Below, piece by piece: positions 1 to 32,000 of a stretch of DNA of 32,000 nt (position 1 is its first letter; each line of letters begins with the position of its first letter). Source of the DNA: Candidatus Saccharimonadota bacterium (GTDB lineage: Bacteria; Patescibacteriota; Gracilibacteria; BD1-5; UBA2023); assembly GCA_042852035.1 (NCBI GenBank), contig BAAFHK010000003.1, positions 30,001-62,000 of the forward strand, written 5' to 3'. The translations under genes and the position numbers were made by a program. The notes beneath the pieces are model-generated. The model searched no databases. It was not told where the DNA came from and was given only the letters and a program-made list of their open reading frames with translations.

Positions 1-680
1 ACTGCTTGAGCATCGGAAAGGCGAAAAGGAACAAATGCACGAAATCGTTCTTTTTTTTCATGTGAAAGCAGAAAAAAAAGAATAAGAAGGATTGAAAGTA
101 TAATCCCATATCAAACTCATCCAACATAGAGAGAAAAAGCAGAATAACCCGCTTCTCAAGCTCACAATGGCTTTTTGAAAATAAGCCAAGGAAAGAAAAG
201 AGAGAGACCAAGCATACCAAGACAGAAAATAATTGTTTTTCCAGGAAGTCAGAGTCGATATGTTCAAAAATTCAGTCTTTGAAAGAATCCAAAAATTTGC
301 GTTTTTAGTTTCCGATTTTTCGAATTCCGTATATAATCCATATGGAAAATCTAATTTTAGATAATGAGCTTTTCTCTAGAAAGAGAGAATGCCTTTAAAA
401 GAAGCTATACATATATTCTTTTTTTGCAAGTGAAAATGCGGTCACCAAATGAAAATATTTACCTCATTCTCTTCTCAACCTTTGTTGAATGAGTAAAAAA
501 AACATTCGAGAATATCACCCAACTTGTCTCATCTTGAAATTGAGATAGATCATGAATAATCTACAGCATATTTCATTACATATTTGTTGATTGACCAAAA
601 AAATTTCGAAAAAATCCAACTGCTGTATCCATTGGAAGGGGTATATTTTCACCCTTCATATTTGTCTTTAAAAAATCGCA

Positions 681-1913
681 ATGAAATTCAAAATAATACC
701 ATCAATCTTTTTAAATAAATCAACTCGTCTAAAACATTGATTTACGTTATTTGAACTCATGCTTGGAATGACAATATTTTCCATGCTTATGGTATTCACT
801 CTTCAGGCCGTATGAAACGTTACTATAGCAAGAACCCGGAGTATGAGCAGAATTACCCTCATTGAAGAACTTTACTTCTTTTCTGAAAAGCTCGCAACAC
901 AAATTAAAGAAGGATGAATTATAGACTACGAGGAGTACTGGAACCGACAAATGCGGGAGGCGAGCCCAAGCCCAACAGCTACATGAACAGCATCATGACA
1001 CTACATCCTTCCAACAGGATTTGGAAATTATGGTGAAGGTGGGGCGAGCCCACTTTGAACTGGATCAACAAATTACTGAAGTGGCTATTATTATTGTAAA
1101 AGTGAAAATGCCTGAAATAAAATGGGAACCAATGGTTGTATCATTGATATCTTAAATAGTCCTGGTTGAGATCAGGCGGGTGACTATCAAAGATACTGAG
1201 AGTATAAGCTTCAATTTACAGACTATAATGGTAATGCTGATAATGATAATGGCATCCCTTGAGATGAGGACGAAGAAGGAAACATTCGCTGAGATGAAGA
1301 TGATAAAGATATTGGTGATGGGCCTCTAGTAATTACTTGATCTTCTCCAGAACTCTACCTCATAAATACTCTTTCGAAAGAAAGAACATACTTCCGACTC
1401 ACTTATAAACAAGATCCAAATCACCCGAATACCTGTAATTTTACTACTTTTGGAACGGGATGTCTTGGTAATATAGAAATGCTCAAACTAAAATGACTCG
1501 ATATAGGACTTGGGCATTCATGAGGACTCAACGATGCAAACAATCCAGGCGCATTTGATTGAGATATAGACACATGGGTTTGTCATCAGGACTGGACCTG
1601 TAATGGACCTACTCTCGCAAACAATTATGGCGTTCTCCCCACTGGAAGAGACAGTGAATGGGTTCCACTATTCCCAGATTATGTAAATGTAAAACAACTT
1701 ACTTTTAGTCTCTACCCACGAAAAGATCCTTGGAAATCCTGGGCTGCAATTGACTCTTTCAGCCCTGGAGCAGTGAGCCCCTTCCTTCACCCATATGTAC
1801 GAGTTCAGATGACTATGTGACTTGCTTGGGAAAAACGAAAACTTATCAATAACGATGATCCAACGATTTCTATCTCAACCACAATTAGCCTCTCAAATAG
1901 TATAACTGAATAA
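681..1913 (+). CDS. Type IV pilin-like protein with a prepilin-type N-terminal cleavage/methylation domain, 410 aa
   Basis: With TGA=Gly the frame is open from ATG 681 to TAA 1911-1913, with 17 in-frame TGA by my count. The N-terminus MKFKIIPSIFLNKSTRLKH-G-FTLFELMLGMTIFSMLMVF is the classic G|FTLxE prepilin motif plus hydrophobic helix. The cleavage-site Gly is itself a TGA (738-740). An acidic DxDxDG-like stretch lies at 1239-1322. Confidence 0.8.
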
Positions 1914-1926
1914 TTTATCTTCTTCC

Positions 1927-2838
1927 ATGAATTCTTCTCGACAGGGCTCTGCCCTACTCATATCGCTTATTGTTCTTACGCTCATGATGATAATGAGTAG
2001 CGTGTTTTTTGAGAAAGTTTTTCGTTTCAGTCAAGCGAGCGAAGGAATCGAAAATTCTAATATCGCCTACTACAAAGCTCTTTGAATAATAGAAACTGCG
2101 ATGTATGGAGCTTGAGTAAATAAATACACTCCTTGGAATATAAAACGTGCCACTTCAGGAGGTTCATACTCAACATCATGAGCAACACTTGAGGTAAATA
2201 CTGGATCATACATAGTTCCTGCACCCGGAAAGTGAAATAGTCCATATGACCCAAATTATAATATTATCAGTATTTGAGAGCCCGTTCAATTAGTTATACC
2301 AAACGGAATAAATAATTGGTGAACGGTAATTTTTCAGTTTCGAATTCCTCAAATTAGTGCCAACTCTTCAACAGGAGTGTATGCCTGAGGGACAAATTCA
2401 TGATATGTACTGTGGACTTTTGCTTCAAGCGGAGCATCACTCTTCGCGAGTGGAGAAACGAATATATTTCGCGGTTCTGAATTGAATAATTCCAATCAAC
2501 TCATTAGTACTCGAATTGGAAAAAGTAATTCCTGAAGCTCAGTAACATTTGGTGATTTTTATTTTTGAGGATGATTCGTAGGAGCCGATGGGGCATTTTG
2601 TAGTGGGTATCAATGTACCCTAAAGCTCTCACTCTTGAGACCAATCATTACTGCAAATTCAAATCGTACGGTAAATTTTCTTGAGTATAAAATCACTTTT
2701 CCAAATACTGTTCTTATTCCAGCTCAATATATGGACCTAAAAGCTGAATGATACGCCTACTGATTTCTGAGGCAAAGGAGCTTTCAGTTTCCTCAAATTA
2801 CCACCAATACCGCTCTAGATTTTGCTGTTCTCCAATAA
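1927..2838 (+). CDS. PilX-N-like minor pilin / pseudopilin, 303 aa
   Basis: ATG 1927 lies 14 nt after the pilin stop. The frame is open to TAA 2836-2838 with 13 in-frame TGA. The N-terminus MNSSRQGSALLISLIVLTLMMIMSSVFF resembles the PilX N-terminal (RGSALLxxL + TM) signature. The rest is Gly/Ser/Asn/Thr-rich. Confidence 0.6.
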
Positions 2839-2849
2839 ACGTATTCTTC

Positions 2850-3812
2850 GTGATTCATCTCTCAATCGATCTCCCATCAGATGCGAATCAACGTATCGAT
2901 AAATTCCTAAGAAAATTCCTTCCGAACGCACCTCTCGGAGGGATTTTCAAGTGGATACGAACATGAAAGATAAAGGTAAATTCAAAAAAAGTAGACCAAA
3001 ATTATCGTGTTTCTCTCGGTGATAGTATTACATTTTTTCTTACAGAGGAGGAAATGTCATCCTTTAAACACTCTCCTGAAATCGTTTGAAATCCTGAAGT
3101 AAAAGTCCAAAAAAAACAATTTGAAGTCCTTTATGAGGATTCTAATATTCTTATCGTTAATAAACCCTATTGAATGAACGTACACCCCTGAGATCATAAA
3201 TCTCAGGAAGTTTCTCTTATAGAACTTGTACACGACTATCTATGAAAAAGTTACAATAGCCTATCTTTTAAACCCTCTTTAGTTCATAGGATTGACCGCG
3301 ATACAAGCGGATGCATTATAATAGCAAAAGAAAAAAGATCTCTCGAAAAACTGCTTCTTGATCTTCAATCATGAGAGATTCGAAAGGTCTACCATGCCCT
3401 TGTTCTCGGAAACCTTGATAAAAAACATGGAACAATAGATAAGAAACTGATTCGAATTGAGAATGCAAAAGACGAAGCAAAGGTTCAAGTACATGAAGAT
3501 TGACTAAAGGCAGTTACTCATTTTCGAGTTCTAAAAGAGTGAATAAAAGAAAAATACAGTCTCGTTGAATGCGAAATAGAAACCTGACGTACACATCAGA
3601 TACGAGTCCATCTTTCATCGCTTTGATACCCAATACTCGGAGATAAGGCCTATGGAAATGCAAAAGAAAACAGTTTTGCTCGAAGGGAGTATAAGATTCA
3701 TCGACAGATGCTCCACGCCTTTTCTCTCACGTTTCTTCATCCAATAACAAGAAAATCAATCCATATTGAGGCTCCTTATATTGGTGACATGAAAGATCTC
3801 ATCGATTTATAA
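2850..3812 (+). CDS. RluA-family 23S rRNA pseudouridine synthase with N-terminal S4 domain (RluD/RluC-like), 320 aa
   Basis: Translation contains RIDKFLRKFLPN...KIKVNSKKV (S4 domain), NKPYGMNVHP-G-D, the catalytic HRIDRDTSGCIIIAK motif, and GRTHQIRVHL. The stop is TAA 3810-3812. I chose GTG 2850 as the start, just after the upstream stop. The in-frame ATG 2748 would overlap the upstream gene by 91 nt. Confidence 0.82.
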
Positions 3813-3946: not shown

Positions 3947-4846
3947 ATGCATACACATATTGATCCTCTCTTAGCATATGAGCAGAGTCTATTGAAGAAA
4001 AAAAATCTCTTCTCTTCGCTCACACAAACTTCGGTTTTTCTATTGCAGTACATTTCGCTCACTGGACTTATATTTTTCCTCCTCATGGGAGCAATAAATT
4101 ACAGTGCATACTCTCAACGTATTTCAAGTTGGATTAACCCTGAAGCATTAGTACAAGCCCAAGATGAAGTAAATAATCTTCTCACAAATGCAACGAGTGT
4201 CTCTGTTCATGCCTCTGAAGGTGCGAATGAAGAAGCACGGGAAGACCTCGCAACAGTAAAAGAAAAAATTCTTCAAGTAGAACCCTCTGTAGTCTATAGT
4301 AGAAGTTATTGACCTGAATGACTCTTATCGAATGCCTGAACCAACACATCATTGAGTGCGAATTTTGTACTTACTCCATATGAAAACCGCATCGTTATAC
4401 CGAAAATCTGAAAGAACATACCTCTTGTTGACGTCACCGTTGATCATGGGGCAAGTTTTGAAACGATGCATGAAGTTTTTATGGAAGAACTTCGCAAGGG
4501 GGTAGTTCGTTATCCAGGAACTGCGGAACCAGGTACGTTAGGAAATGCATTTATCTTCTGACATTCTTCAAATTTCCCATGGGTTAAAAGTGAATACAAT
4601 GATGTTTTTGCACTTCTCGATAAACTTGAGAAAGGCGATGAAATTATTATTTATTACTATCAGAAGAAATTCGTTTATAAGGTAACCGAACATCGTGAGG
4701 TAAAACCTGGAGATGTAAAGACTCTCGAATCTCGTGATAAAACAAAAAAAGAACTTTCTCTTATGACTTGTTGGCCAGTAGGAACAACTCTTGACCGACT
4801 CATCGTATTTGCTGAACTTGATGAATCAGTTTCCTCAAAAAACTAA
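3947..4846 (+). CDS. Membrane-anchored sortase-family transpeptidase, 299 aa
   Basis: An N-terminal TM segment (VFLLQYISLTGLIFFLLMGAI) is followed by a sortase fold. The catalytic His lies in NAFIF-G-HSSNF (Gly = TGA 4559-4561) and the catalytic Cys in ELSLMTCWPVGTTLDRLIVF (TLxTC-like motif). The stop is TAA 4844-4846. The start could alternatively be TTG 3884. Confidence 0.78.
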
Positions 4847-5129: not shown

Positions 5130-5133
5130 AAAA

Positions 5134-5159
5134 ATAGAAGATTTCTCTTCTATTTTTTT
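5134..5159. terminator. Bidirectional rho-independent terminator hairpin
   Basis: ATAGAAGA (5134-5141), loop TTTC, TCTTCTAT (5146-5153). It is flanked by an A-run upstream and a T-run (5153-5159) downstream, and sits between convergent genes. Confidence 0.6.
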
Positions 5160-7728: not shown

Positions 7729-9690
<1,962 letters not shown>

Positions 9691-9978: not shown

Positions 9979-10842
9979 ATGCTGAAGAAAGTTTTTCTTT
10001 TTATAGGAATAATATCATCGTTATCCATAATAGCATGGTATCTCAGTATTCATGCAAGTATCTATGAGGATAAAATCGTGCTCCTGTGAGAAGAAGGAGA
10101 TACACTTATCGTTATCGAGGCAATTCGAACTTCCATACTCTGAATCTATTACAACCATGATTACGGAGTATTCTGATATATTAACTGAAAAAGGATTCAG
10201 GATTCTACACAATTTTTGAGTTTTAAGAGAGATCTTTCTTCCCATGGATTTATTCGTGAAATTCAAGATCATCACGATCATGAAAACACCAAACGAAGTA
10301 TTGCGGCACATATAAACTTTGAAAATAATGACATCTATTTTCTTTCAGAAGACCTTGTGGCGGATATGACACTTAAAACTTACACGGACTATTTTCGGTA
10401 TGGATCACTCTGAGGTGCGAAAGGAAAAATCAATCATCAAGAATCGAATTTTTTTGTGACCCTTACCACTACAGTTGTGCATGATGGAAAATATGCAACT
10501 TTAAACCCGAATACCGAAGCAGATGGGTATGTATGAGGATTTTGGGAAAAAGAAAATATAGCATATTTTGATCGTTCTTTCATTAGAAAATATGGACCCG
10601 GAGAAGAATACTACGAACACAATTTCGGCTTTCATAAAAACTGATTTGGTATAAGTCGTGTTGAAGGTATCGATATGAATCAGAAAAGTTCTTCCGAACG
10701 TGAGATTAGGGTTTGAGAAAAAATATTTTCTATCTCTCGGAATTATCCAAAAGAAGAATCTTGAAATGAAAAATGGTATATACTTGAATGACCGACTGGA
10801 AAATGATATATCAATGAATGGCGTGCTAGTAATTCAGATTAA
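9979..10842 (+). CDS. Signal-anchored hypothetical protein, 287 aa
   Basis: The N-terminus is MLKKVFLFIGIISSLSIIAWYLSI. The frame was checked line by line through 15 TGA codons to TAA 10840-10842. No family was recognised. Confidence 0.55.
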
Positions 10843-13800
10843 TCCCAAAGGCAACACTTCATTGGTAATCTCATGCGAGAGAACTTGCTGTTGGATTGGA
10901 TCAAAATTTTACTCGATAGGTAAATGTATTTTTAAAGCCATTTGTATTTATATTTTTTGCTACCGCGATAATTGTTTGAGGTGTAGCATGAGGGGTTAGT
11001 ATTGTAGAGTATCAAGCTCCTATGTCTTTATCATATCCCCAACCATTTGTTCCGTTGTAGACAGTAACCGTCTGCCCACTATAAGTCAAATCCGAGCTAC
11101 GTTGAAGGGTAAGATTAAATCCTGCTCAGATTGTTTTAACTGTGAGTAAAAGATCTCACGATCAAAAAGTATTCATACCCGTTGGAGTAGTTCAAATATC
11201 ATAAATTGGAGTTGAAAGAATCCACTCTATTTCATCAACATAATAGGTATAGCTTTGCGTCACTGTATTGCCAAGAAGATCAGAAATACTTATATCAAAT
11301 CGATATTTTCCATATGGAAGATTTGTAATATCAAATCATCCTGATGTTGCGTTAGGAATTCAGGAATAAAGCATATACGATCATGCGATATTTGTAGCGC
11401 TCCACGTTGAACCTGTCGCATTCCAAGGATAAATACGTCCCGAGAAAGATGCTGGATTTATCCCTACTCATGTATCAGCATAATTTAGGGTGAGTGAAAA
11501 GGTTCATTTTGGAATCAAGGTTCCTGAAGAGATATTTATTGACGTAATAACTGGAGGAGTACTATCAACTGGAACAACTTTTCAAAAAGTTACATATTGG
11601 AGATCAGAAATATTTACGTTAAAGTCCCAAGTAGCCTGGGCTGAATTATAGGTTCAAGTATATGCACTGGCTCAGACGGCAAATAATCAATCCATATCGG
11701 TAAAAAGCATGAGCGTTCCTGTAAATCAAACTGGAACACTGGAATTTGGGTAAGAAAGAGTAACATTCCCTATGTCCCCATTTTTTTCTTGAAAGAGCCA
11801 CTCTCGAGCTATTCTCTGATATCCACTCCCTATATCATTCCCTGTAAATGCGAGAGTATTCCCGAGATCATTTGCCCAAAGAAGCGCATTTCTATTCGTA
11901 CCAATTGCTGACTTTGAAACGATAATATCTCCTAGACTAGAGACAGAACGGGAACGATTCTGATTTAACGTAGTAGCATCATCACGCGCAATACCAGCAA
12001 TATTATTCTTATAGACTCAAGCGGTCGTGGCATTCCATATAATACTTCCATTTGATCCAAGATAGTTGGTTGGTAGGGTTTGATCGAGGGTAATACCGTA
12101 CTTAATAGCAAGATAAGACTCAACCTGAAGTCTCTGAGCATCGTTGAGTCCATTCGGATAAACTATAACTTCTGCCAGATTTGTGAGGGTTGCATTGGTT
12201 CCCACCACTCTTCCGATACCAATATTAGCAGCTGTGAAATTCCCTGCCGTATTACTTGAAAGAACCTGTTTCCCATTGGTATATCCACTCGATGTTCCGG
12301 TAGTTTGTCGAAGTGTTGTAGTAATAGCAGGAACATTCGCGCTTCGTGCATTGGCTCAATTATAAAATACAAGTCATGCATACCTCTGCCAAACATCCGT
12401 CGTCGGAGAAGTTGACCGTTGTAAGGCATTTGCTACTGCTGTTTGTGGTCATATTGGAAAAGTTCCTCACGTGCTAATTCTCGTTACGGTAAAGATTGAA
12501 GCTGAACTCGCAGTAATTCCTAATGTATTATTCGTATTGAGTGAAGCGTTATTAAAGTAGAGTGTTGGATTATAGTTTATTGAATTTGCAGGATCATAAA
12601 CTACCGTTCACACAGCCGATGTTCCACTTGCAGAGGCACCAAGTCATCCACGATTCGCCCAACTCGTAACAGTACAACCCGTTGTTGTACAGTTCGTTCC
12701 ATTATTTCCCATTAGCCAGAGATTCTCTCATGAGATTCAACCAGGATCATTTGCAGGACCACCTCAAATGACCGCATTTGCTGAAAATGCTCGATTATTC
12801 GTAAGATTTGAATCACCCCCTCAGGAGATATCAACATAAAAAGTTACACTGGTACCACTAGCCGCTAAAGTCGGTGTTATTGGTATTCGTAATGATTCGT
12901 CTCCAGCAAGGGATCAGGTAACACTTGTTGTCTTAGTACACGTAACTCCAGTTCCAATTTGCGCACCACAAGACCAACCATTATCTGTAAAGGATGATGT
13001 TGGTCATGTAATATTTGTTGGGACTGTAAAAATTACAGTATGAACCCCGCTCGAGGAAAGATTTCCAGCATTTGAGATGGTTATTGGGAGTTGGGAAAGT
13101 AAATTTGTTGTCAATGGTCACTCTGGAAGTCCAATACCAGGGATAAGATCAGCAACCGGGGTAGATACATATGGAAGGAGTCTCCATTCTACGGTCCCAC
13201 TATATGTTTTTGGAGTATTCCCCAGATTCCAATCAACTCAAAATCCGAGATCTCATGCCGTATTTTGAACTGTATTTGCAAAATCAACCCCATTGGTAAT
13301 ACGACTTGCAACTGTACCGTATGGTCAGACCTCGTGAGCCGTCCAAGCAGCTCCACTCAAGTAGCGAAAAGCTGAGAGGACATTTGCGACATTATCATAG
13401 ACTCAGACTGTAAGACCACCTGTAGAAGAAATATATCATACATCATTAGCATCAGCTCATGCAACATAACTATCGTTTCCAAAATAGAAGCGAACATTCG
13501 CAGTATTCCCCGTTGGAATTATTACTTTATAGGACCACTGAAGATATTTATTTGGTGCTGTATAGAACCAATCAATTATAAGCGTATATGTAAGCCCTCC
13601 TACGACTCGAGTCATCGTAGAGGTGGCTCTATAGGTATTACCACTTGTTGACCCGGTAGTTGATTGTGTAGACCATGCCGTAGCTGTTACCCCATCTACA
13701 CCATTCCCATATGTGGTTGCACCGATTCTGAGCGCAGCCCAAAGCCCTGGTAACCCACATCAATTTGCAGCTGGATTTCCACTATAAATCTGAGACAGAT

Positions 13801-14893
13801 TATTATAGTATATCTGTGCTTGTGCACAATCACCTACTATGATACGAATATCGTTTGATCCTACAGTTCCTCATGATGGATTCAGAGTAAATGAAGATGC
13901 TCAACAAGTATAAAATGTTGCTCTACCATTTTTTACCGTTACTGTTGAACCAGGTATACTCGCCGTACCGTTCTCGTTACATAATGTTGAAGGATTCACC
14001 GAGAGTCATCCAGTATGGAAATCACTATCTCCGGCATGCATTGTAAGAATATCAAGGATATTTCCATCACTCATCATAGGAACATCAAGAACTACTTTTA
14101 CTGGTTTTGAGAAAAGAAGATGTACTCATGAGAAACCAAACTCAAATCATTCAACTTGCGCCTCTGAGAATCACTTTCGTTTTACTCCACGATTCTTCAT
14201 CTTTGCTTCATATTTGGTTTTTGCCTTACGCAACTTTGTTGAGTGTAGCTCAGAAAATCCTATCTGCGCCATTTCTATAATTTCTCAGCTTGAAGTACGA
14301 ATCACCGTTCCCGACTCCATCTCATAACTCAATCCTCATCGGAGATTGGAAAGTTTTTGTGATTTTCTTGATTTTTTATCAAGCATAAACTTATCTGACT
14401 TATATACTGGGAGTGGTATATCAACTATATCACTGAATGATGGATTTGTTCCACTTCATTCGACTAGAGTATTTTTTCAAAGAAAAAAATCAAATGGCAT
14501 AATACCTCAAGATTGAAAGATGGAAGGAAGCTGATAAAATACTACATCTGAATCTGGTGATATTTGGGGAGTTTTTTCAAAAGCAACCTTTTGTGCCAGT
14601 AGTGTGCGCACTTCATCTACACCAGTATAGGTAAATTCTATATGACGTTTCCCTGCTTCATCTTTCGGATTATTCGAATCAGAATATTGTCCATCCATCG
14701 ATTCGAGTACCAATCTACGATCTTCGGGATTATCAAGACTTAAAGGCGCTCATTCTGGCACAGAAATATCTCCGAAAGGAAGTGCGTCTAAAGAATATTG
14801 CGCTTCATCTATAGCATAAACTGAGAAAAGCCCTTCTTGGAAAAAAAGGACAAGCAAGAGAATACGAGAGATGCAAATCTGAAACCTATGCAT
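10826..14893 (-). CDS. Giant secreted surface protein, 1355 aa, with DUF11-like repeat, LamG-like domain and C-terminal Ig-like modules
   Basis: I scanned a single minus frame (low codon positions 2 mod 3) line by line from ATG (14893-14891) to TAG (10828-10826) and found no TAA or TAG. About 51 in-frame TGA are present. It begins with a signal peptide, [31 protein letters not shown]11-like segment reads [14 protein letters not shown]...[20 protein letters not shown]...GWSCG...VTCTKT...[14 protein letters not shown]. The LamG-type hallmark is [35 protein letters not shown]. Confidence 0.8.
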
Positions 14894-15911: not shown

Positions 15912-16967
15912 CTATCCTTGCTCAGTAAGCATAGCAATACGTGTTTTATCATGAATATATTTTTCTATTATTGATCGAGTTACATGCTTACGTTTATAGA
16001 GATCTATAATTGCATCATCCATAAGAATCATTCCTTCTTGTTTTGAAATTTCAAGAATCGAATACATATGGTGTGTCTCTCAACGGATAATGAGGTTTCG
16101 AATTGAGTCATTATTGAGCATTATTTCGCGTGCCACAACCCTTCATGTTCCATCGGCTTTTGGAAGAAGAACCTGAGATACAACGGCTCGAAGAGCAAGA
16201 GAAAATTGCATTCGTATTTGTGCTTGTTCGTCAGGAGGAAATGATTGAATAATTCGATCTACTGTTTGTATAGTGTCATTGGTATGGAGCGTGGAGATTA
16301 CGAGGTGACCTGTTTCTGCAAGCGTTACAGCAGCACGTATTGTCTCAAGGTCACGCATTTCTCATACGATGATAACATCTGGATCTTCACGAAGAATAGA
16401 TCTAATTCCATCCGGAAAGCTATCAAATTGCTTTCCAAGCTCTCTTTGATGAATTAGGGATTTCTTATTTTCATAGACAAACTCAACAGGATCCTCAAGA
16501 GTAATGATATGTCGCTGACTATTGCGATTAATATGTTCAATCATAGCAGCCATCGTTGTTGATTTCCCTGATCCAGTTGGACCAGTAATAAGAACAATTC
16601 ATTTTTCTGCGATAGTGAGATCAAGAAGATATTTCTGAAGTCAAATTGCTTCTGGTTCTGGAATAATCGAAGGGATCGTACGCATCGAGATTGTAAGTCC
16701 ATGAATGACTCGGGAAATATTCACACGGAATCGAGTTCCTGATTGTTCATAAGAAACATCAATAGTGGTTTCTGTAAGTGGTCGAGAAAGTAGAAATTCA
16801 ATTATCTGAGTAAGATCTTCTTCACTTACCTTTCCAAACATTTGGACAGGAGAAATATCTCATATATGATTACGTATATATGGATATTCATTCGAGGAAA
16901 AATGAAGGTCAGAAATTCTATTTTTGATAATGTCTTCTATGAGAGACCGAAAACGCTCGATTTGCAT
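15912..16967 (-). CDS. pilT: Type IV pilus retraction ATPase PilT family, 351 aa
   Basis: Three track ORFs in the same frame (16641..16841, 16362..16553, 16143..16358) are joined through TGA codons. Motifs: ISDLHFSS, Walker A G-IVLITGPTGSGKSTT (leading Gly = TGA, plus-strand 16599-16601), EDPVEF, Walker B DPDVIIVGEMRD, and TGHLVISTLHTND. The start is ATG 16967-16965 and the stop is TAG 15914-15912. Confidence 0.92.
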
Positions 16968-17126: not shown

Positions 17127-17648
17127 ATGAAAATCATCGTTTGACTCGGAAATCCAGGAAAAAAATATGAAAATACCCGACATAATGTCGGATTCCTTGC
17201 TATTGACTCTCTTCAAAAATCGTTTGGATGAAACGATTGGCAAGATTCAAGATTTCACGCTATTACTTCAGAGACGGGAACAGTAATATTCATAAAACCA
17301 CTCACTTTCATGAATCTTTCGTGAGACGCGGTTTCAAGTATCGTGAATTATTATAAGCTCGATCCGAAAAATGATATTCTCATTATTTCAGATGATCTGG
17401 ATATGGAGTTTGCAAAGGTACGTTTTCGAGAGAAAGGCAGCCATGGTGGACAAAACGGCCTCAAGGATATCATTACGAAACTTGGAACCGATGAATTCTC
17501 TCGGATAAAAATCGGTATATGAAGGCATGAGAAATATGAGGTAGTTGATTGGGTACTGTCAAAATTTCAAAAAAACGAAGAAAAAATACTTCACGAAGAA
17601 GTATTTCCAAAAGTAGAAGATCTTATAAAAAAATGGCTAAGCAGCTAA
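17127..17648 (+). CDS. pth: Peptidyl-tRNA hydrolase, 173 aa
   Basis: Translation: [23 protein letters not shown]...KPLTFMNLSGDAV...ISDDLDMEFAKVRFREKGSHGGQNGLKDI...RIKIGIGRH. The Gly of the invariant VGLGNPG motif is TGA 17142-17144. The stop is TAA 17646-17648. Confidence 0.93.
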
Positions 17649-18460: not shown

Positions 18461-19207
18461 ATGCGTCTTGATATTCGCCTCTCTGAGACAAAAGACATAA
18501 CGAGAAATAAGGCTCAAAGTTTCATCAAAGATGGACTCGTAACCGTTGATGGAAAAATTATTATAAAACCTTCTTTCGAAGTGAATGGAAACGAGATTAT
18601 CGAACTCAAAGAGGAGAAAAAGGTTCACTGGGTATCACGAAGCGCGGGAAAACTCGATGGATTTCTTGAACAACTACAAATCCAGAATATTGAACTTCAA
18701 GTAGCTGGAGCGAGGTGTCTCGATGTGGGATCATCTACTGGAGGATTTACTCAAGTACTGATACAAAGGTGAGCGAATCATGTTGATGCGGTCGATGTTG
18801 GAACGGATCAACTTCATTCAACCATAAAAACACATCCAAGAGTACAAAGTCATGAACAGATAGATATTCGGAATTTTAAGAGTGAGAGCATCTATGATAT
18901 CATCGTCTGCGATGCTTCATTTATTTCTCTGGAAGATATCCTTGCAAGTATCTTGAAATTCGCCAACGAGGATACAAACAGTATCTTGCTGTGGAAGCCA
19001 CAATTTGAAGTCGGAAGAAAAAATCTGCGAAAAACCTGAGTCCCAAAAGACGAGGAAACCGTTAAGAAAAAACAACTCGAATGGGAATTTTTTCTCTGTG
19101 AAAATAATTGCAAAATTTTGCAAAAAGAAAAATCAACCGTACTTTGAGAAGCCTGAAATGTAGAATGGCTCTACCTTATAAAGAAAATGGAAAAAATGGA
19201 AAAATAA
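18461..19207 (+). CDS. tlyA: TlyA-family rRNA 2'-O-methyltransferase with S4 domain, 248 aa
   Basis: Translation: MRLDIRLSETKDITRNKAQSFIKDGLVTVDGK (S4 domain), [47 protein letters not shown], and IVCDASFISL. The stop is TAA 19205-19207. Confidence 0.85.
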
Positions 19208-19575: not shown

Positions 19576-20346
19576 ATGTGACGTTGACCCGTTGTAGCTG
19601 CTGCTAAAGAAAAAAATGCAAAAGCGAAAGCAAAAATTAATACTCTCCATGCGAAACTCATTGCTATCGCTGCTGAAAAATGATCAGATATAAGCCTCAA
19701 TACTTCACTTGCTGATGCTATTCATAGCGCAAAAAAGGATGGGGTCACTGCCGATGTTATCGATAGAGCCATCAAACGATGAGCCTGACTTGATAAAGAT
19801 TCTCAAAAAGTTGAAGAGATTATCTATGAATGATACGCTCCTGGTTGAGTTGCCATCATTGTAAGAGCGCTCTCTGATAATCGAAATCGTACAGCACCAA
19901 ATATGCGACACATATTTTCTGCATATGGAGGAAGCCTTGGTGAAACTGGTACCGTCTCAAATTTTGCCTTTGACTACCGAGGAGTTATAAGTCTCACAGA
20001 GTACTCAAACAGTGATGAACTTGAGATGGCTATCATGGAGACGAGCGCCGAAGATTATACTCTAGAATGATCTGAAGCACGAATCACAACCGATCGCACA
20101 AAGCTCAGTGAAGTGAGAAAATCACTCGAAGAATCTGGGTATAAAATCGAAAAATCAAGCTTTGAATATCTCCCAAAAAATTATATTGAAGTAACAGATT
20201 TTGATATCGCACTGAAGATTTACAAAATGCTCGAGGAATTTCATGAAGATGAAGATGTTGAAGTAGTGTGGAATAATGCTGATATTTCAGACGCGCTTTG
20301 GAAAGAAGTCGAGATGAAGGTAGAATCGAGTAAATTTAGAACTTAA
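19576..20346 (+). CDS. yebC: YebC/PmpR-family transcriptional/translational regulator, 256 aa
   Basis: Translation: ...LADAIHSAKKDGVTADVIDRAIKRGAGLDKD...[53 protein letters not shown]..., typical of YebC. It joins the track ORF 20113..20346 in the same frame. The stop is TAA 20344-20346. Confidence 0.9.
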
Positions 20347-20348: not shown

Positions 20349-20915
20349 ATGACTCAGTATTTTCTTCATGGTTGATGTGTGGGGGCCTTATCACAAGATA
20401 ATAGAGATTTCTTCTCAACCCTTGTAATGGCTCCAAGAAAAGAATCTATTCGAATTCTCATAATTCCCTTTGCAAGAGAAAGATCTCGATGGGATAAAAA
20501 ATTCGAAGAAATTAAAGAAAGATTTTTTGAAGTTGCAGAATGAAAAGAAATTAAGATTATTCTAAGTGAGTCAGACATCCAAAAATGCCAAGAGGAAATA
20601 CGCAAAGCTGATATTATATTTATCTGGTGAGGAGAAACCGAAGTCTTGCAAGCTCAACTCGAAAAAATTGAAGATTTCAAAGAAATAATCTCATGAAAGG
20701 TTGTTGCGGGGTCATCTGCAGGAGCGCTTATCTTCTCAAAATACTACTATGAAAATGACACTCACAGCTATCATAATGGCTTTTGATTTCTTGACTGTGG
20801 AATAATATGTCATTGGAGAAATCAGGAAAAAGAACTTGCTCATATAAAAAAATATTGATGAGTAAATAAAGTTCTCTGTATAGCAGAATGAAAATATCTC
20901 ATTCTGGAATGTTAA
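20349..20915 (+). CDS. Peptidase S51 (dipeptidase E / cyanophycinase-like) family protein, 188 aa
   Basis: It starts 3 nt after the yebC stop. The frame was checked line by line to TAA 20913-20915. Motifs: ADIIFIW-G-GETEVL and the nucleophile motif VVAGSSAGALIFS. Confidence 0.72.
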
Positions 20916-22402: not shown

Positions 22403-24742
22403 TTGAAGCACTTTATTGAACATATCATTACTCTTATTTACCACCATTTCAGACGACTTGATCGTATTGGAGTGATTTGGTATTTATGAGTTCTTTATAG
22501 CATCTTCCTAATAGGGATGACTTTCAAGTATACGGTGATAGATCATGAGTTTTATAAGAAAATTGCTTTTGATCAGCAAACAATGGTATTGAAAAATCCA
22601 GTATCTCGAGGATCAATATATTCTTCATCTGAGTCACTCAGATGAGCTCTCTCAGTATCAACAAACCTCTGAAATCTTGCCATTGATCCTTCACAAAATG
22701 GATCAAGAGAAAAATTGCTTTCTTTTCTTTCAGACATTGTCTTCGATGAGTATTGTAGTTATAGCTCAAATTGTCTCTGATCGATGTCAAATTACCTCAG
22801 AGAAGATATCACTAGTAACAGTGATATGGCAATCTCTACATTAAAAGGGAAAATTCGTGAATATCTTTCGCGAAAAATTGACTCCCCCGAAGAGGTCGTA
22901 TTAGTAAAAAAAGACCTTGATGATGATATGGTTGAAATTATCAGTAGCTGGCAAGATACTTCACTTTTCTTCGTCGTAAATCATCTCTATGTGAACCCTA
23001 CAAAAATAAATGAACCCGAAGTTTTAGCGACCCGACTCTCTCCAATTATATGACTCCCTGTGGAAGAAATTCTTCCAAAATTCGAAAAGAAGAAAAAACG
23101 ACACCTTGAAATTATCCGAAAAATGAATGTGAGTACACGAGATGCTGTAATGACTCGCCTTTCCAATGAGCGCCAAGCAATCAAGAATAAAGAACTTGCC
23201 ATTGAGGATTCGATTGTGCCATTTATAAAAATTGAAGATAATCTAGTACGTTTCTATCCAGAAAAAAATATCACAGGACAGATAACAGGATTTGTAGATG
23301 GAGATGGTATAGGAAGGTATTGAATAGAATGATATTTTGAAGATCTTCTTCAGGCTGAGAGCCCAACCGAACGAGTTATCAAAGATAGCGCCAATCGTCC
23401 AATTGATGGATATGTCTCGCGTGGATTAATCACTTCTAAGAACGGGATCGATATTACTCTCACGATTGATCGAAATATACAGAAAGAGATTGGGGTGCGT
23501 CTTGAGCGAGCCGTAAATAATTTTAAGGCAAATAAATGAAGCATTATTGTAATGGATCCTGTAACTGGCGCCATAAGAGCGATGGTAAACTACCCCGATT
23601 ATGATCCAAATAACTTTACCCAAGTGTATGAAATGGAGCCCGTGAATTACCTCACTTACAAAAACCCATATTTCGAACTCTTTGGAACCCCCCTTTATGT
23701 TGTTGATACTCTTTCCGGAACTACTTTTGCAAACATTGATGGACAAAGACTAAAACTCAGAGAGGCTGCTGATAGAGAAATAACGAATTACTCAATCACG
23801 AAATATAAGTACAAGAATAAGTATGGTTCGGCCGTATATTCCAATGATATTGTTTCCGCATTTTATGAACCTGGTTCTGTTTTTAAAGCAATTACTACCG
23901 CTATAGGTATAGATACCGGTGAAATCTCCCCTGATGATACTTATCTTGATAAGTGATATGTAGAGCTATCCTATGAGTGAGGTAGGAAGAGTAGAATCTC
24001 AAATGTAGCATCCCAATGTACCTGAAGGCACACATACCTCCATGCTCTTGATTGGTCCTGTAACGTTGGTATGATTTCCATCATAGGAAAAATTGGACCT
24101 TCACTCTTTCATAAATATTTATGAGACTTTTGATTCGGAGCAAAAACAAATATTACGCTTGATGGGGAAAATTACTCACAACTCACCCCTTATGAAAAAT
24201 GGTCTAGAACACAGTTTTTTACCATGTCGTTTGGTCAAGGTATAAACACTACCATGCTTCAAATGGCAACCGCCTATTCTGTACTTGCAAATGGTGGAAT
24301 ATATATGGAACCGCATATTGTGGAATCAGTTACTTATCCTGATGGAAAAAAAGTTGATACAATCCCAACACCTATTCGAAGAGTTATAAAAGAAGATACC
24401 TCTAAAACAGTAACAGCCATGCTGGTTGATGGTGTTCGAAATGGTTTTGCAAAGAAATGATGAGTTCCAGGATATACTGTAGCTTGAAAAACTGGTACTT
24501 CTCAAATACCCTATAGATGAGGGTACGAGAATCGTATTTTATGACAAGATGTTGGGCATACTATTACATCATATGGCGGTTATGCCCCAGCTAATAATCC
24601 AAAATTTGTTCTTATAGTAATGATTAATCGTCCTCGAACTGATCAGTACTCAGAAAATACTTCTTCAGCCCTTTTTTCTGAAATAGCAAAGTATCTGCTT
24701 GAATACTACAAAATTCCAAAAAATGGTGAAATGCAAGGTTAG
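22403..24742 (+). CDS. Class B penicillin-binding protein (FtsI/PBP2-type transpeptidase), 779 aa
   Basis: Four track ORFs in the same frame (22784.., 23060.., 23552.., 24224..) are joined through TGA codons. An N-terminal TM segment is followed by SxxK (EPGSVFKAIT), SxN (WSCNVG) and KTG (A-G-KTGTSQ, Gly = TGA 24485-24487). The stop is TAG 24740-24742. TTG 22403 is inferred as the start because it is the only canonical start upstream of the TM segment. Confidence 0.85.
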
Positions 24743-24767: not shown

Positions 24768-25397
24768 TTACCTCTCGCCCGTAAGTTTTTCTTTTGATCA
24801 AAGTATTACTGGATCCGTGCCAATAATGCCATCTATAATAGCTCTCCAACGTGCAGCAATTTCACGAATATACGTATATAATCCAAGTGAAAGACTTACA
24901 TTGGCTGATCCATATCAGATTGCTTCAATATGATTCGAACGAGCCAAAAATAATGCTCGCTCCACATGAAAAGGCTGTGAAATAATCGTAAATCCACTTC
25001 ATTGACCAAAAATCTCTTTTGCCCGAACAACAGAGTCAAGGGTACGAAATCACGCATAATCAAGAGTAATAGCCGACTCAGGAATTCAGGCCTTAAGTAG
25101 GGCTTTTCTCATAGCTTCTGGCTCATTATATGCTTTCGTACTATTATCTCACGAGACGAGAATGTGTTCTATCTTTCATCGCTCAAAAAGAACCTTTGCG
25201 GCCTCTATGCGAGTAGAAAAGAATACATTATTCACACCATTAATGCTTGGGGTTGTCCCGAGAAGAAGTCAGACATGGTTTTTTGGAAGAAGGTCTGGGT
25301 TTCTATAAATATCATTTTTTGTTACCCATGAAATCCACCCCCATGGGAGAATGAGGAAAAGCAAAAAAAGAATCAAGGTGGTAAAGAGTCTACGCAT
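24768..25397 (-). CDS. sanA: SanA/YdcF (DUF218) family protein, 209 aa
   Basis: Translation: MRRLFTTLILFLLFLILPW..., ILVS-G-DNSTKAYNEPEAMRKALLKAGIP, LDYA-G-FRTLDSVVRAKEIF, IISQPFHVERALFLA. The start ATG 25397-25395 overlaps the proS stop (ATGCGTAG). The stop is TAA 24770-24768. Confidence 0.85.
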
Positions 25398-26613
25398 GGA
25401 GAGAAACTAGAGAAAGTGAGCTCTCATTTCTGAGCTTAAGTTCATAACCACCTTTTTCGAGGGTTTTATCAGAGAGGATAATACGATTCGGTATTCCAAA
25501 AAGGTCTGCATCTCAGGCCTTTTGTCCAAATCCCGCATCTCGATCATCGATGAGGACTTCAGCTCAACTTTTCTCAAGATTCTCAGCGAGTTTTTTTGCT
25601 TCTTCAAGATGATTTCCTATCACAATAATTATATGTGAATATGGAGCTATAGAATCTGGCCAGACAAGTCATTTATCATCTGCAAATTTCTCCGCAATAA
25701 CTCCAACAAGTCGAGATATTCCGATTCCATAGCATCCCATAAAAATATGATCTTGAACTTTTCCTTCTCGATCCTGATACTTAAGTCCAAAGGCGTCTGA
25801 AAAACGTGAACCAAGCTTAAAGATATTCCCAACCTCAGAAACGATTTTCTTGTCAAATTCATGATTTCCACACTCAGCACAAATGAAGGCTTCAGGATTG
25901 ATAATTTCAAGATTGTGTGCCTGTCAGCACTTTTTACAGATATAGATTTCGTCCTCCCCGATACCAAGTTCCGTCTGGAACTCATACGAATACTTCGAAA
26001 AATCTCCACCTGAAGCAAACGTATAATAGGTCGAATCTGCGAGTCAAAGTCGGTCAAATACACGATTATAGGCACCGTGCATTACTTCGAAGTAGGCATC
26101 AAGTTCTTCTTGACTTCGATGGAAAGAATATGCGTCCTTCATAAGAAATTCTCGACCACGGAGCAATCCTGATTTTGCACGCTTTTCATTTCGAAATTTC
26201 CACTGGATTTGGTAGGCAGAACATGATTCGAGATCTTTATAAGATTGGATAAATTCTCCCACTAATGGAGTAATTACTTCTTCATGGGTAGGGTTGAGAG
26301 CATATTCTCGGTTTTCAGCGGCTGGGAGCTTAAAAAGAACATCAACCGTATCCCAGCGACCTGTCTTTTCCCATGATTCTTTTGCTCCGAGTGCGGTCAT
26401 GAGAACCTCAGCTGAACCGATGGCATTCATTTCTTCACGAACGATATTTTCAATTTTCCTCAGAGTACGAAGTCAAAGAGTAGTAAAAGAATAGGCTCAA
26501 GCTAGAGTCATACGAATCATGCCAGCCTGAAGAAGAAGTCCTGTCCCGCGGTTATCTGATCCTGATGGGATTGATTTCTGAGTTTTAAACGGAAGTTTTG
26601 AAAGGAGTTGCAT
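25390..26613 (-). CDS. proS: Prolyl-tRNA synthetase, short form without INS editing domain, 407 aa
   Basis: The frame was checked line by line from ATG (26613-26611) to TAG (25392-25390). Motifs: LLLQAGMIRMTLAGAYSF; class II motif 2 WKFRNEKRAKSGLLRGREFLMKDAYSFH; motif 3 GCYGIGISRLVGVIAE; and an anticodon-binding tail. A CxxC...CxxC insert lies at 25861-25941. Confidence 0.9.
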
Positions 26614-26654: not shown

Positions 26655-27419
26655 TTAAAAGATATTATTCTTTGGAAAGATGGTTGTCCCTCATTTGTTT
26701 TTATGTGAAACTCACGAATGAATACCATCACAGATATGAGTAACTATTCCTAATTGGGCCGCTTCGCGGGCAATTTCCAATTTTGACGGCATCCCTCAGG
26801 TACCAATACTTGATTTCCCTCAACAAATTGAATTGATGAAATCTGGAGTGAGCGATTCGCCATTCAAAGTAGAAATCCTTGAATTTGGATCTTCAGGATT
26901 TTTATAAACCCCATTTGTATTAGTAATAATAATGATTGATTTTGCTCGAAAAAGTTGGGCAAGTAAAAGTGCATTTTTATCATTATCAGCCCCTCTGTTA
27001 AGAGCTATCATTTCCTCAGTGGAGATTGGATCGTTTTCGTTACTTATCGGGAGTATGCCTTGTTGCCAAGTAGCTTCAATAGTTCTCTTAAAAGTATTTG
27101 CCCTTGCTATATTATCTTCAATGTCAGCATGGGTAGCAAGAAATCAAGCCACTTGAATATCAACCTTTCAAAATCTCTCAGCATATGCCCTCATAAGATG
27201 ATGCCAACCAACTGCAGCGAGTACTTGTCGGTCTTCATCATCCTTTTTCTGAACTCAAAGAACTTCTCTTCCAAATTGCACTGCACCAGATGTTACGAGA
27301 AGTATATCTGTACTTGCAAAATGGGTACGCACATCTTGGACGAGAGCATTAATCTTCTCAGATGTTTGAAAATTTACAAGTGATTCACTTCAAATTTTCA
27401 CAATCAAACGACTATTCAT
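26655..27419 (-). CDS. proB: Glutamate 5-kinase (no PUA domain), 254 aa
   Basis: Translation: MNSRLIVKI-G-SESL, ILLVTSGAVQFG, VLAAVGWHHLMRAYAERF, LPISNENDPISTEE, GADNDKNALLLAQL, IIITNTNGVY, SIGT-G-GMPSKLEIA. The start is ATG 27419-27417 and the stop is TAA 26657-26655. Confidence 0.9.
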
Positions 27420-28276: not shown

Positions 28277-28361
28277 TGGTGCTCGGGATGAGATTTGAAC
28301 TCACACACCCTAGGGGCATACGCGTCTGAGACGTACGTGTCTACCATTCCACCACCCGAGC
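28277..28361 (-). tRNA. tRNA-Leu (anticodon CAG), type II with long variable arm, CCA encoded
   Basis: The reverse complement reads GCTCGGG-TG-GTGGAATGGTAGACAC-G-TACGT-CTCAGAC-GCGTA-TGCCCCTAGGGTGTG-GTGAG-TTCAAAT-CTCAT-CCCGAGC-A-CCA. It has a 7-bp acceptor stem, a 5-bp anticodon stem with loop CU-CAG-AC, a T-loop TTCAAAT, and a total length of 85 nt. Confidence 0.93.
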
Positions 28362-28472: not shown

Positions 28473-29408
28473 ATGCACTCTCAATCCATCACAAAATACT
28501 TTACATACTCCTTTAAGACACTTTTTTCGAAGCAATTTAGTAATATTGCAGGAAGCTCACTGGTGGTACATACTATGATGATGTTAATCATCTACTTTCT
28601 TTCTGTATACCTACTCTATCGCGGTGCTGAGATGATTATAAGCTTAGATGGCGGTGAAATTATACGTTTTTTTATTCAAGGGTATGTGATTCTCTTTGTT
28701 ATGATGATAGCCGTACTTATTTCTCGAGGTTGGCAAGCTACTATAATGCCAATACGAGCTATAGATCATACAAAGTGAATCCACTTTCTTGGTGATATTC
28801 GACTTTTTCATGAACACTTCTGAAAATTCATATCATTCTTCTTTTGGTATGGGGCGATTCTATTTTTTGCCTGGAATATCTATATTTTCTCAACTATTAT
28901 TCTTTGGGCAATTCATCCCAATTTTTGATTTCTCTCTCTTGTTTGATGACTTATTATTATCATACGAATAACCATACGCTATACCCTCTCCTGGTATCAT
29001 ATGCTCTCGGAATGATCATGAAGTCTTGAGATATTTCTTGAATCAAGAAAATTTGTTCATAAAAGAATCGTGGAGGTCTTTTTAAAAATTCTCTGATTTA
29101 GCATTATTGTTTGGATTATGAGTTTTTTTATCGAAATATTTCTTCTTTGATTTCTTTCAAGTCCAGACTGGAGTAGTGAACTTGCTAAAATTACGAAGCT
29201 TATTGTCGACTCAAATGGAGATATGGTAAATCGGATGAAGTCACTTATTCTTATTCTCGAGGAATCATATGGGAAAATCACCCTATCAGGTATTGTGCTT
29301 TGCGGGATTTACTCTCTGAGTTCGGTCGTTACTCGGGCAATGTTTCATATTTTTTCAGTACACTACTACCTCCACCTCCGCGATGAATGGGAAGAGTGAA
29401 AAAAATAA
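28473..29408 (+). CDS. Multi-pass membrane protein, 311 aa (paralog A of 30221..31249)
   Basis: The track ORF 28473..28778 was extended through 12 TGA codons to TAA 29406-29408 and checked line by line. TAGAAT (28461-28466) lies 6 nt upstream of the ATG. The N-terminal motif is YSFKTLFSKQ...GSSLVV...GWQATIMPIR. Confidence 0.65.
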
Positions 29409-29429
29409 CCCTCCATTTGGAGGGATTTT

Positions 29430-30134
29430 TTAACCAAGAAATGAAACTTTTCTTGCTGCTGGGTCTTTTCCATACTGATTATCTCCAGTCACTCCTGGTC
29501 GAAAGAGGAGAACAAGCCACATTATTGTTGAAGCAATTGAGATTATGTTTCCTATATATCATAAAAGCCTCTGATAAAGTGGAGTTGCACTTTGTATTGC
29601 TTTCATAGCCATCATCGGGTTATCAGATGATGTAGCATCGATGTTATTGAGTGCCGCTGAAAGATCTACAGAAGGAAGAACACCAAAGTTTTGAAGGACT
29701 CATACAACAAGCCAAATAACACTCATCGCAAAACTTGCCGTTACAATATATACTGCGATTTTTCCGTCACTTCCAAAATCACGAGCACGCTTAATAGAGT
29801 TCACTTTTGCAAGATTATATAAAAGCCAGTAGATTCCTCACATAACCACAAGACCGATTATCGCTGAAGCCTTCCCCAATATCATCATAAGGGGAATAGT
29901 CAGGATAGTGCTTGCAATAATAATAAAGAAGAGGAGAATCCCTGGAACAAGTGATCGTACAAAATATTGATATCTTCGAATGCGTCCTTCTGGTTCAATC
30001 TGAAAATACTTTTCTTTCAAAGTGAGTTCTTGGTTTGTACTCACTTGAACAGGAGGAACAGCTGAAACTTCAGGAGATGTTGTCTCTGAGGAAGTATTTA
30101 CAGTAGAATCAATTGGGGCAGAATTTTGATCCAT
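29430..30134 (-). CDS. DUF805-family inner membrane protein, 234 aa
   Basis: Motifs: KYFQIEPEGRIRRYQYFVRSL (the FxGRxxRxeYW hallmark), TM segments, and the C-terminal LFRPGVTGDNQYGKDPAA typical of DUF805. The frame was checked to TAA 29432-29430. I preferred ATG 30134 as the start. The upstream in-frame ATG 30191 is possible. Confidence 0.72.
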
Positions 30135-30220
30135 AAAGAGAAATAAGAGGATAAAATGATTTGCCGATGAATGGAAATCTAGTATTATCATACTATTGAC
30201 TCATTAATTATCAATTTCTT

Positions 30221-31249
30221 ATGAGAAATGCATTTGATTATTTAGAATATTCGTTTTTTACTCTATTTTCGAAAAAGTGAATTCGTATCATCGGATCATC
30301 GGCTCTTGTTGACGCTATTTCAAGCATTATTACAATCATCCTTCTTTATGAAAGCGTTATCCTATTAGGGAAAGATTATATCGAAAATGGTACAGCAGAT
30401 ATTCGCAACCTTATATTAAAGGCACTCCTTGTTCTCTTATGACTTACCACTATTGGCATTATTAATGTCTGATGGAAAATGATCGTAATTCCTATTCGTT
30501 CCCTCGAAAATGAACAAAAAAAACTAGATTTCAGTGAGGATATTGCTCTTTTTAAAAAATACTTTGGTTACTATATTTCTTATGTTACATGGTACAGTGT
30601 ATTTCTCATCATTTGGATTCTTTGAGCCATTTGAGGAGGGATATTATTTTGGATGATAGAGAAACCATTTTTGCTCTTTTTATATGAGGTTATACTCTTT
30701 TGAGCATTATTCTTTTTTCAGATATGAATCTCTCTTACGTGGTATAATATTCTTATAGATCCCACATATTGAATAAAGGGTCTAAAAAAATGATATCAAC
30801 TCTCAGAGTGAATAAAGTGGCAACTTTTTAAGATTATCTTTCTTTTTTCTCTCGTGATAAGCCTTGCAAGCGGTGTCATTACAAACCTCAACTCCCTTTT
30901 GCCTTCCCCAGATACTTCTCAGACTCTCAAATCATTTGATATTAAGACTGTTTCATGAGAAGCACCGGATATAAATAATGTGTTTCCTTCAACCGAAAGT
31001 GGTAGTCGTTCGGAAACAGCGATGCCTCCTCTTCAGATTACGAGTCAATCTATTGAGAGCATAATACGTGTTATTGAAATTCTCATGCCAAATATATCAA
31101 TAACTTTCATACTCATGTCTCTTGAATGAGTTCTCGCTACTGCTATGATGCAAATCTTTCTTATGCGACTTACTATCGATGTCCGCCAAGATACTGAACT
31201 CTCACGAAAGAAGAGGATAGAAACTAATTCGACCTCATCGCTTGAATAA
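30221..31249 (+). CDS. Multi-pass membrane protein, 342 aa (paralog B of 28473..29408)
   Basis: The frame was checked line by line from ATG 30221 to TAA 31247-31249, with 16 in-frame TGA. The N-terminal motif is YSFFTLFSKK...GSSALV...GWKMIVIPIR. The C-terminal region is a Ser/Thr/Pro-rich linker followed by a hydrophobic helix. Confidence 0.65.
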
Positions 31250-32000
31250 ATCAAAGGAATAGAGGGTGTGGTCTTGTTGGTCGAGAGATAAGCTCTGGAT
31301 GAGCCTGAGTTGCTATCATATATGGATGATTTCGAAGTTCAACCACCTCAGCAAGAGTTCCGTCTGGGGAAGTTGCCGAGACGATGAATCATTTTTCTTC
31401 CATTTGTTCTCGATATTCTGGATTAAATTCAAATCGATGCCGATGTCGTTCAAGAGCTATTGATGCTTCATACACTTTTTTTGCAAGAGTTCCATCACGG
31501 ATAGTACATTCATAAGCCCCAAGTCGCATATTCCCTCACTTTGTTGTGAGTCATTTTTGATGCTCCATGATGTGGATGATATTATTCTTTCCTTCTGGGG
31601 TAAACTCTTCACTTGAAGCATCATTTATGCCGAGTACATTTCGTGCAAATTCTATAGCCATAATTTGGGAGCCAAGGCACACTCCAAGATACGGGATATT
31701 ATTTTCTCTCGCGTATCGAGCAGTCATAATCATTCCTTCAGTGCCACGAGTTCCAAATCCACCGGGAATACATATACCATCAAATCATTTGAGAAGCTCG
31801 ATTCATTCATTTTCAATATCTTCTGCCTCAACAAATTCAAGCTTCACCTTCATTTGATGAGCATATCAAGCACATTTGAGTCACTCATTGAGTGAATAAT
31901 ATGCATCCTCAAGTCCAACGTACTTTCCTACCATTGCAACTCGAAGAACCTCTTTGGATGCATCAATATTTGCAAGAAGATTTTCCCATTTTTTCATATC
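31224..32000 (-). CDS. pyrG: CTP synthase, C-terminal glutamine amidotransferase part (N-terminus beyond the window)
   Basis: Translation: [22 protein letters not shown]..., [23 protein letters not shown] (Gly = TGA, plus-strand 31785-31787), [51 protein letters not shown]. The stop is TAG 31226-31224. Confidence 0.93.

Follow-up and report, generated by a model that had tools for sequence, protein, structure and literature searches.

Use of UGA as a Glycine Codon (Genetic Code 25) in a Chromosomal Segment of a Gracilibacteria Bacterium

Introduction

NCBI translation table 25 is the code of Candidate Division SR1 and Gracilibacteria (Campbell et al. 2013; Rinke et al. 2013; both cited in PMC8629427). 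In this lineage, the reassignment of UGA to glycine is backed by Codetta predictions and by an analysis of tRNA-Gly(UCA) and release factor 2 (RF2) (PMC8629427). Published Gracilibacteria and Absconditabacteria genomes possess tRNA-Gly(UCA) and lack RF2, and two 'Gracilibacteria' with RF2 and without tRNA-Gly(UCA) also retain UGA as a stop codon (PMC8629427). Proteomics on a BD1-5 bacterium identified 40 peptides with glycine at UGA and one with tryptophan (Hanke et al. 2014, PMC4032931). Using Codetta, Shulgina and Eddy (2021) further predicted that CGA and CGG encode tryptophan in Absconditabacteria and that CGG does so in some Gracilibacteria (PMC8629427). In the present study, we analyzed a 32,000-bp stretch of bacterial DNA with a GC content of 36.8% (hereafter the window). 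An earlier note, written from the letters of the window, had proposed that UGA encodes glycine throughout it, as in genetic code 25.

The window resembles the table 25 systems in that UGA is read as glycine, UGG as tryptophan, and UAA and UAG as stops, in that the genome is a low-GC genome from the Candidate Phyla Radiation (CPR), and in that its nearest relatives are metagenome-assembled genomes (MAGs) of Gracilibacteria. The features tested revealed no difference from table 25, and the use of TGA is heavy. The systems using table 4 (Mycoplasmatales, Entomoplasmatales, Hodgkinia, Nasuia, Zinderia, and Stammera) are similar in that the UGA stop has been captured as a sense codon, the genomes are AT-rich and reduced, and table 11 breaks the genes up in the same way. 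However, the amino acid in the window is glycine, not tryptophan, and the lineage is a different one. The code variant of Absconditabacteria, a sister lineage within the CPR, also has UGA as glycine (PMC8629427), whereas CGA and CGG remain arginine codons in the window and CGA is abundant. We conclude, with a probability of approximately 97%, that the window is part of the chromosome of a Gracilibacteria bacterium (BD1-5, CPR) using NCBI genetic code 25.

Results

Open reading frames with TGA as a sense codon

Under the standard code (table 11), the window contained only 27 open reading frames (ORFs) of at least 100 amino acids (aa), with a total length of 9.8 kb, and the longest encoded 154 aa. 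When TGA was read through and TAA and TAG were retained as stops, ORFs of 1359, 787, 655, 414, and 412 aa and further ones appeared. This pattern is far beyond chance. As controls, read-through of TAG gave a maximum of 173 aa and read-through of TAA a maximum of 265 aa, and neither rescued the ORFs. The fragmentation of nearly every gene under the standard code, which the earlier note had described, was therefore reproduced.

To define a gene set, ORFs delimited by TAA and TAG were scored by codon-usage log-odds, with Pfam-confirmed genes as the training set. This gave 31 gene models on both strands, which together spanned 90.5% of the window and were separated by short gaps, and the longest encoded 1343 aa. 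In-frame TGA codons were present in 30 of the 31 models; the sole TGA-free model was located at 5636-6007 on the minus strand. TGA accounted for 275 of 9514 codons (2.9%, approximately one per 35 codons). These codons were evenly distributed along the genes (mean relative position 0.50; Kolmogorov-Smirnov p=0.72 against GGN codons). Of the 30 complete genes, 22 ended in TAA and 8 in TAG, and the C-termini set by these two codons were close to those of homologues. These results confirmed that UGA is used as a sense codon in the genes of the window and that TAA and TAG are the sole stops.

The gene content was cellular and not viral. It included Pth, ProS, ProB, PyrG, YebC, TlyA, RluD, a class B penicillin-binding protein (PBP), a sortase, SanA, and PilT, as well as prepilin-type proteins and a PriA-like protein.

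Residues opposite TGA in genome homologues

Representative genomes of GTDB were scanned with ProS, which yielded 80 loci, 72 of which used the standard code. BLASTP alignments were prepared with X at each TGA, which made them unbiased with respect to the residue, and were then mapped back to codons. A conserved column was defined as one with at least five sequences and a consensus of at least 60%.

In the 72 standard-code loci, the residues opposite TGA of the window were glycine in 405 of 613 cases and tryptophan in none, and the conserved columns at TGA were glycine in 14 of 19 and tryptophan in none. The GGN codons showed a similar pattern (glycine 1249/2113, tryptophan 0/2113; glycine in 44 of 54 columns; Fisher p=0.52 against TGA). 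All other codons differed strongly from TGA, with glycine at 675 and tryptophan at 94 of 27,779 residues and glycine in 13 of 577 columns (p=3e-17 against TGA). TGG was opposite tryptophan in 189 of 301 cases and glycine in three, and four of its six conserved columns were tryptophan. The assignment of UGA to glycine made in the earlier note was thus upheld by a check on aligned residues of the kind that it had suggested.

Codon-to-codon comparisons were performed with Gracilibacteria orthologues of five genes (ProS, SanA, PyrG, ProB, and one unknown gene). Since synteny with these relatives was limited to ProS and its neighbors, the comparison at the codon level rests on these five genes. TGA in the window was opposite GGN 70 times, TGA 20 times, TGG never, and other codons 11 times (n=101). 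Conversely, TGA in the relatives was opposite TGA of the window 20 times, GGN 18 times, and TGG never. The exchanges between TGA and GGN are synonymous exchanges of glycine codons. TGG in the window was opposite TGG in 50 of 59 cases and never opposite TGA, in agreement with the earlier argument that TGG still encodes tryptophan and that code 4 does not apply. Once TGA was assigned to glycine, the standard amino acid was the most frequent partner in the relatives for each of the 62 observed codons. Glycine made up 5.1% of the residues when TGA was left out and 7.9%, a normal value, when it was counted. For tryptophan, TGG by itself gave 1.2%, and a reading of TGA as tryptophan would raise this value to 4.1%. 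UGA is therefore a sense codon for glycine, and the remaining 61 sense codons show normal behavior. The data also support UGG alone encoding tryptophan and only UAA and UAG terminating translation.

Homology across TGA codons and profile scores

Homology did not end at TGA codons in the Pfam and PDB alignments. Pfam domains were matched from end to end through TGA in PseudoU_synth_2 (1-152/152), AA_kinase (2-234/234), and Transpeptidase (2-298/299), and the YebC, T2SSE, and GATase domains likewise spanned TGA codons. PDB alignments reached within a few residues of the C-termini defined by TAA or TAG in PilT, Pth, YebC, RluD, and PyrG. No TAA, TAG, or frameshift was found inside any of the conserved domains matched by Pfam.

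Ten proteins with 90 TGA codons were scanned against profiles with G or W at each TGA, and nine of them also with X. For the 13 domains with scores for both residues, G was above W in every case, with summed scores of 1504 and 1370 bits, respectively; this substitution check had also been suggested in the earlier note. Twelve domains were scored in all three ways; 11 of them ranked G above X and X above W, and X and W were about equal in T2SSE.

The PDB homologues used were all from standard-code organisms. Among the alignments printed, every PDB homologue had glycine opposite TGA in PilT (before Walker A and at four other sites), Pth (VGLGNPG, SG, and IGxGR), YebC (RGxG and YEGYxPGG), RluD (TGRTHQIR), ProB (VKxGS, GTGGM, and others), PyrG (GGTMRLG and two more), and the PBP (FGxG). 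No PDB alignment had tryptophan opposite TGA.

The nine TGA codons named in the earlier note (beginning at 17142, 16599, 27390, 26796, 24485, 31785, 25149, 4559, and 738) were all in frame and in the context that it had quoted. Its description of these positions as invariant glycines held for most of them. It was correct for Pth, PilT, both sites of ProB, and the prepilin GFxxxE motif, for which the TIGR02532 cutoff was passed with G. It was too strong for PyrG, in which TGA 31785-31787 is at a variable position (N, G, or D in PDB homologues and S, K, H, or Q in genome homologues), and for the PBP, in which only two of four PDB homologues had G opposite the TGA before KTG and the remaining ones had A or I. 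The SanA example was compared only with other Gracilibacteria and an NCBIfam model. In the sortase, TGA 4559-4561 was opposite G in 4d70 ('iaGH'), and the other PDB alignments were weak.

Lineage and UGA usage

In the genome collection, ProS was 77-85% identical to that of Candidatus Gracilibacteria MAGs, 59-66% identical to that of more distant Gracilibacteria, and approximately 50% identical to that of other CPR bacteria (Paceibacterota, Saccharibacteria, and others). Its best match in the protein collection showed 92% identity, and the matches there with a named source were from Gracilibacteria or Peregrinibacteria. Based on these identities, the organism appears to belong to Gracilibacteria. 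One older relative in the protein collection (P0099) was labeled 'gcode 4'; this label reflects an annotation choice and not how the codon is read.

UGA was the most used glycine codon in the window (275 of 756, 36%). At the same aligned codons, the window had 28 TGA and its closest relative (locus L001) had 9, an approximately threefold difference. Among the relatives (loci L001-L004, L008, L040, and L047), the share of TGA among glycine codons rose as the GC content fell, and in L040 (26% GC) TGA made up roughly half of the glycine codons. This trend fits a conversion of GGA to TGA under AT pressure. We also noted that another locus, L054 (OY782392.1, the 1.05-Mb chromosome of a 'Patescibacteria group bacterium'), had a GC content of 24.5% and almost no long table 11 ORFs around ProS. 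Although its title is silent on this point, UGA is probably recoded there as well.

Genes and other features of the window

The annotated features are as follows.

681..1913, plus strand: protein with a prepilin-type N-terminal domain; TIGR02532 (GFxxxE) scored 23.7 bits against a cutoff of 16.3 with G at TGA, and TGA 738-740 encodes the cleavage-site glycine (G/FTLFE).
1927..2838, plus strand: hypothetical pilin-like protein with an N-terminal hydrophobic segment; 13 TGA and no family match.
2850..3812, plus strand: RluD-family pseudouridine synthase (S4 and PseudoU_synth_2); 10 TGA, one of which encodes the glycine of the TGRTHQIR motif; 124.2 bits with G and 101.2 with W; start codon uncertain.
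3947..4846, plus strand: sortase; 87.7 bits with G and 78.1 with W; TGA 4559-4561 is directly 5' of the catalytic-His motif (xHS); start codon uncertain.
7729..9690, plus strand: PEP-utilizing enzyme with a PPDK_N ATP-grasp domain and a mobile His domain; 17 TGA.
10826..14857, minus strand: 1343-aa protein, family not assigned; 51 in-frame TGA.
15912..16967, minus strand: PilT-type pilus retraction ATPase; 6 TGA, five of which are on glycine in all three PDB alignments printed, including 16599-16601 just before Walker A.
17127..17648, plus strand: peptidyl-tRNA hydrolase (Pth); 4 TGA, three of which are on glycine in all three PDB alignments printed, including 17142-17144 in VGLGNPG; 205.0 bits with G and 189.6 with W.
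18461..19207, plus strand: TlyA-type rRNA methyltransferase (S4 and FtsJ); 4 TGA.
19576..20346, plus strand: YebC/TACO1 family protein; 8 TGA; five of six aligned TGA are on columns that are glycine in 12 of 12 genome homologues.
20349..20915, plus strand: Peptidase S51 family protein; 8 TGA.
22517..24742, plus strand: class B penicillin-binding protein (transpeptidase); 17 TGA, one of which (24485-24487) precedes KTGT; 215.6 bits with G and 195.1 with W.
24768..25397, minus strand: SanA/DUF218 protein; 8 TGA, including 25149-25151 (SxDN); the PDB search gave no match.
25390..26613, minus strand: prolyl-tRNA synthetase (ProS), short form; 7 TGA, five of which are on glycine-consensus columns across 45-72 standard-code homologues.
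26655..27419, minus strand: glutamate 5-kinase domain protein (ProB) with no PUA domain; 8 TGA, including 27390-27392 and 26796-26798.
28277..28361, minus strand: tRNA-Leu(CAG), the only tRNA in the window and not a UGA decoder.
31224..32000, minus strand: CTP synthase (PyrG), C-terminal (glutaminase) half, running off the window; 8 TGA, four of which are on majority-glycine positions in PDB homologues.

The only family match of the 1343-aa protein was a sub-threshold match to Y_Y_Y. Since its gene is near those of PilT, the prepilin-type proteins, and the sortase, the protein may function at the cell surface or in attachment. A 248-aa ORF at 17637-18383 (minus strand) had a high coding score and four TGA codons; it is convergent with Pth and overlaps the 3' end of that gene by 12 nt. 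It had no match in Pfam, NCBIfam, or the PDB.

The PriA-like gene at 21533-22381 (plus strand) encodes a protein of only 282 aa, in which the N-terminal 3' DNA-binding domain (PF17764) is recognizable; the models for primosomal protein N' match residues 3-123 only, and the helicase core is missing or degenerate. The gene for the ProB-domain protein adjoins that of ProS, and no ProA gene was found in the window. Since this protein scored below the TIGR01027 cutoff (147.6 against 186), its exact function is uncertain. Two genes at 28473-29408 and 30167-31249 (both plus strand) encode multi-pass membrane proteins with similar N-terminal regions. Neither had a family match, and they are apparently paralogues. 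They flank a DUF805 gene at 29430-30134 on the opposite strand.

Between two convergent genes, a 24-nt inverted repeat with 88% complementarity and a 4-nt loop was located at 5118-5169, and probably acts as a bidirectional terminator. The window had neither tandem repeats nor notable dispersed ones. The gap between TlyA and YebC contained a GC-rich island (19208-19575; 51-55% GC against 37% in the window). It has a near-consensus sigma-70 promoter (TTGACA-16-TATATT) at 19210-19237, a 65-codon ORF at 19266-19463 (plus strand) for a small hydrophobic peptide with eight glycines and no TGA, and a GC hairpin followed by a T-run at 19485-19510. The island had no Rfam match, and its fold z-score was -2.35. 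It could encode a small membrane protein or a small RNA.

Discussion

Four independent lines of evidence, namely the profile scores, the PDB homologues, the genome homologues, and the codon comparisons with Gracilibacteria orthologues, agree on the assignment of UGA to glycine. Several observations weigh against our conclusion. Five of the 19 conserved TGA columns had a consensus other than glycine (alanine three times, asparagine once, and one other residue), and one TGA of ProB was opposite a conserved glutamine. However, 10 of the 54 conserved GGN columns were also non-glycine; the rate is the same for both, and the conclusion is not weakened. The placement of the organism in Gracilibacteria is based on the best matches of one marker, ProS, and not on a phylogeny. 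Furthermore, the window contains no tRNA with the anticodon UCA and no release-factor gene, and a scan of the window with Rfam at gathering thresholds detected nothing besides the tRNA-Leu(CAG). Searches with ARAGORN of the loci of relatives (approximately 100 kb; seven Gracilibacteria loci and one Patescibacteria locus) likewise revealed no tRNA(UCA), and identified only tRNA-Leu(CAG) and tRNA-Ser(CGA).

Since neither a UCA tRNA nor a release-factor gene was in view, the decoding machinery is inferred here rather than observed. Judging from published work on the lineage, UGA would be read by a dedicated tRNA-Gly with the anticodon UCA, and RF2, which would terminate at UGA, would have been lost. 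The glycine identity elements of such a tRNA would be G1:C72, C2:G71, G3:C70, and U73. Alternatively, UGA may be read as glycine by other means than tRNA-Gly(UCA) and the loss of RF2, such as a tRNA-Gly(UCC) that is modified or altered in structure and has extended wobble. Extended wobble has been discussed for tRNAs with a 4-bp anticodon stem (PMC13092985). We regard this mode of decoding as quite improbable; if true, it might accompany the unusually heavy use of UGA in the window.

Extended recoding of the Absconditabacteria (SR1) type, in which UGA is glycine and CGA and CGG are tryptophan, has UGA=Gly in common with the window, and the predictions of CGG=Trp in some Gracilibacteria (PMC8629427) speak for it. 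However, CGA is the most used arginine codon here (122 per 10^4 codons) and is located on arginine columns (11 of 18 R and 3 K). The single informative CGG column was arginine in seven of seven sequences, in a small sample of 19 CGG codons. In the relatives, CGA and CGG exchange with CGN and AGR codons and never with TGG. The extension does not apply to CGA and is unlikely for CGG, and we give the complete variant a slightly smaller chance than the alternative decoding described above.

Genetic code 4, which assigns UGA to tryptophan and is used by Mycoplasmatales, Entomoplasmatales, and several endosymbionts of insects, would also explain why UGA is clearly a sense codon in an AT-rich genome, and some relatives, such as P0099, are deposited in databases as 'gcode 4'. 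In contrast, tryptophan was found opposite TGA in none of the 613 standard-code residues and none of the 19 conserved columns, and exchanges between TGA and TGG were never observed with relatives (0/101 and 0/59). Moreover, the proteins with W at TGA scored 135 bits below those with G over 13 domains, and the tryptophan content would reach an implausible 4.1%. The homologue alignments refute this code, which we consider extremely unlikely.

The interruption of nearly every gene under table 11 may also be taken as a sign of pseudogenes or assembly errors, with TGA still a stop. However, TGA is the sole interruption, whereas TAA, TAG, and frameshifts are absent from the conserved domains, and its placement is on glycine positions and not random. 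Twenty TGA codons are located at the same positions in orthologues from independent MAGs, and the coding density is 90% with TAA and TAG as stops. Since only TGA interrupts the genes, at glycine positions, and 20 of these codons are common to independent MAGs, this explanation is refuted, with a probability that we place below even that of code 4. The least probable explanation is that UGA, which is a selenocysteine codon in standard-code bacteria, encodes selenocysteine here or is read through in a programmed manner at particular sites; it is refuted by how many UGA codons there are and where they are located (275, or 2.9% of all codons, spread over 30 of 31 genes, with no specificity for position or gene and none on Cys/Sec consensus columns) and by the lack of any selenocysteine insertion sequence (SECIS) element in the window by Rfam.

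The reading of UGA as glycine under code 25 is already known, and the window is a textbook case of table 25 in the lineage in which the code was discovered. The statement in the earlier note that no lineages other than Gracilibacteria and Absconditabacteria are known to have this reassignment agrees with PMC8629427. The reassignment was described in 2013 and later confirmed by proteomics and large computational screens, and the present study extends it to a further Gracilibacteria lineage. With table 11, almost all genes of the window are broken into pieces, and table 4 places tryptophan at approximately 275 glycine positions. Since both tables misannotate the contig, table 25 is required. What is mildly new is quantitative only: UGA is the most used glycine codon in this bacterium, and its use appears to expand among the relatives as their GC content falls.

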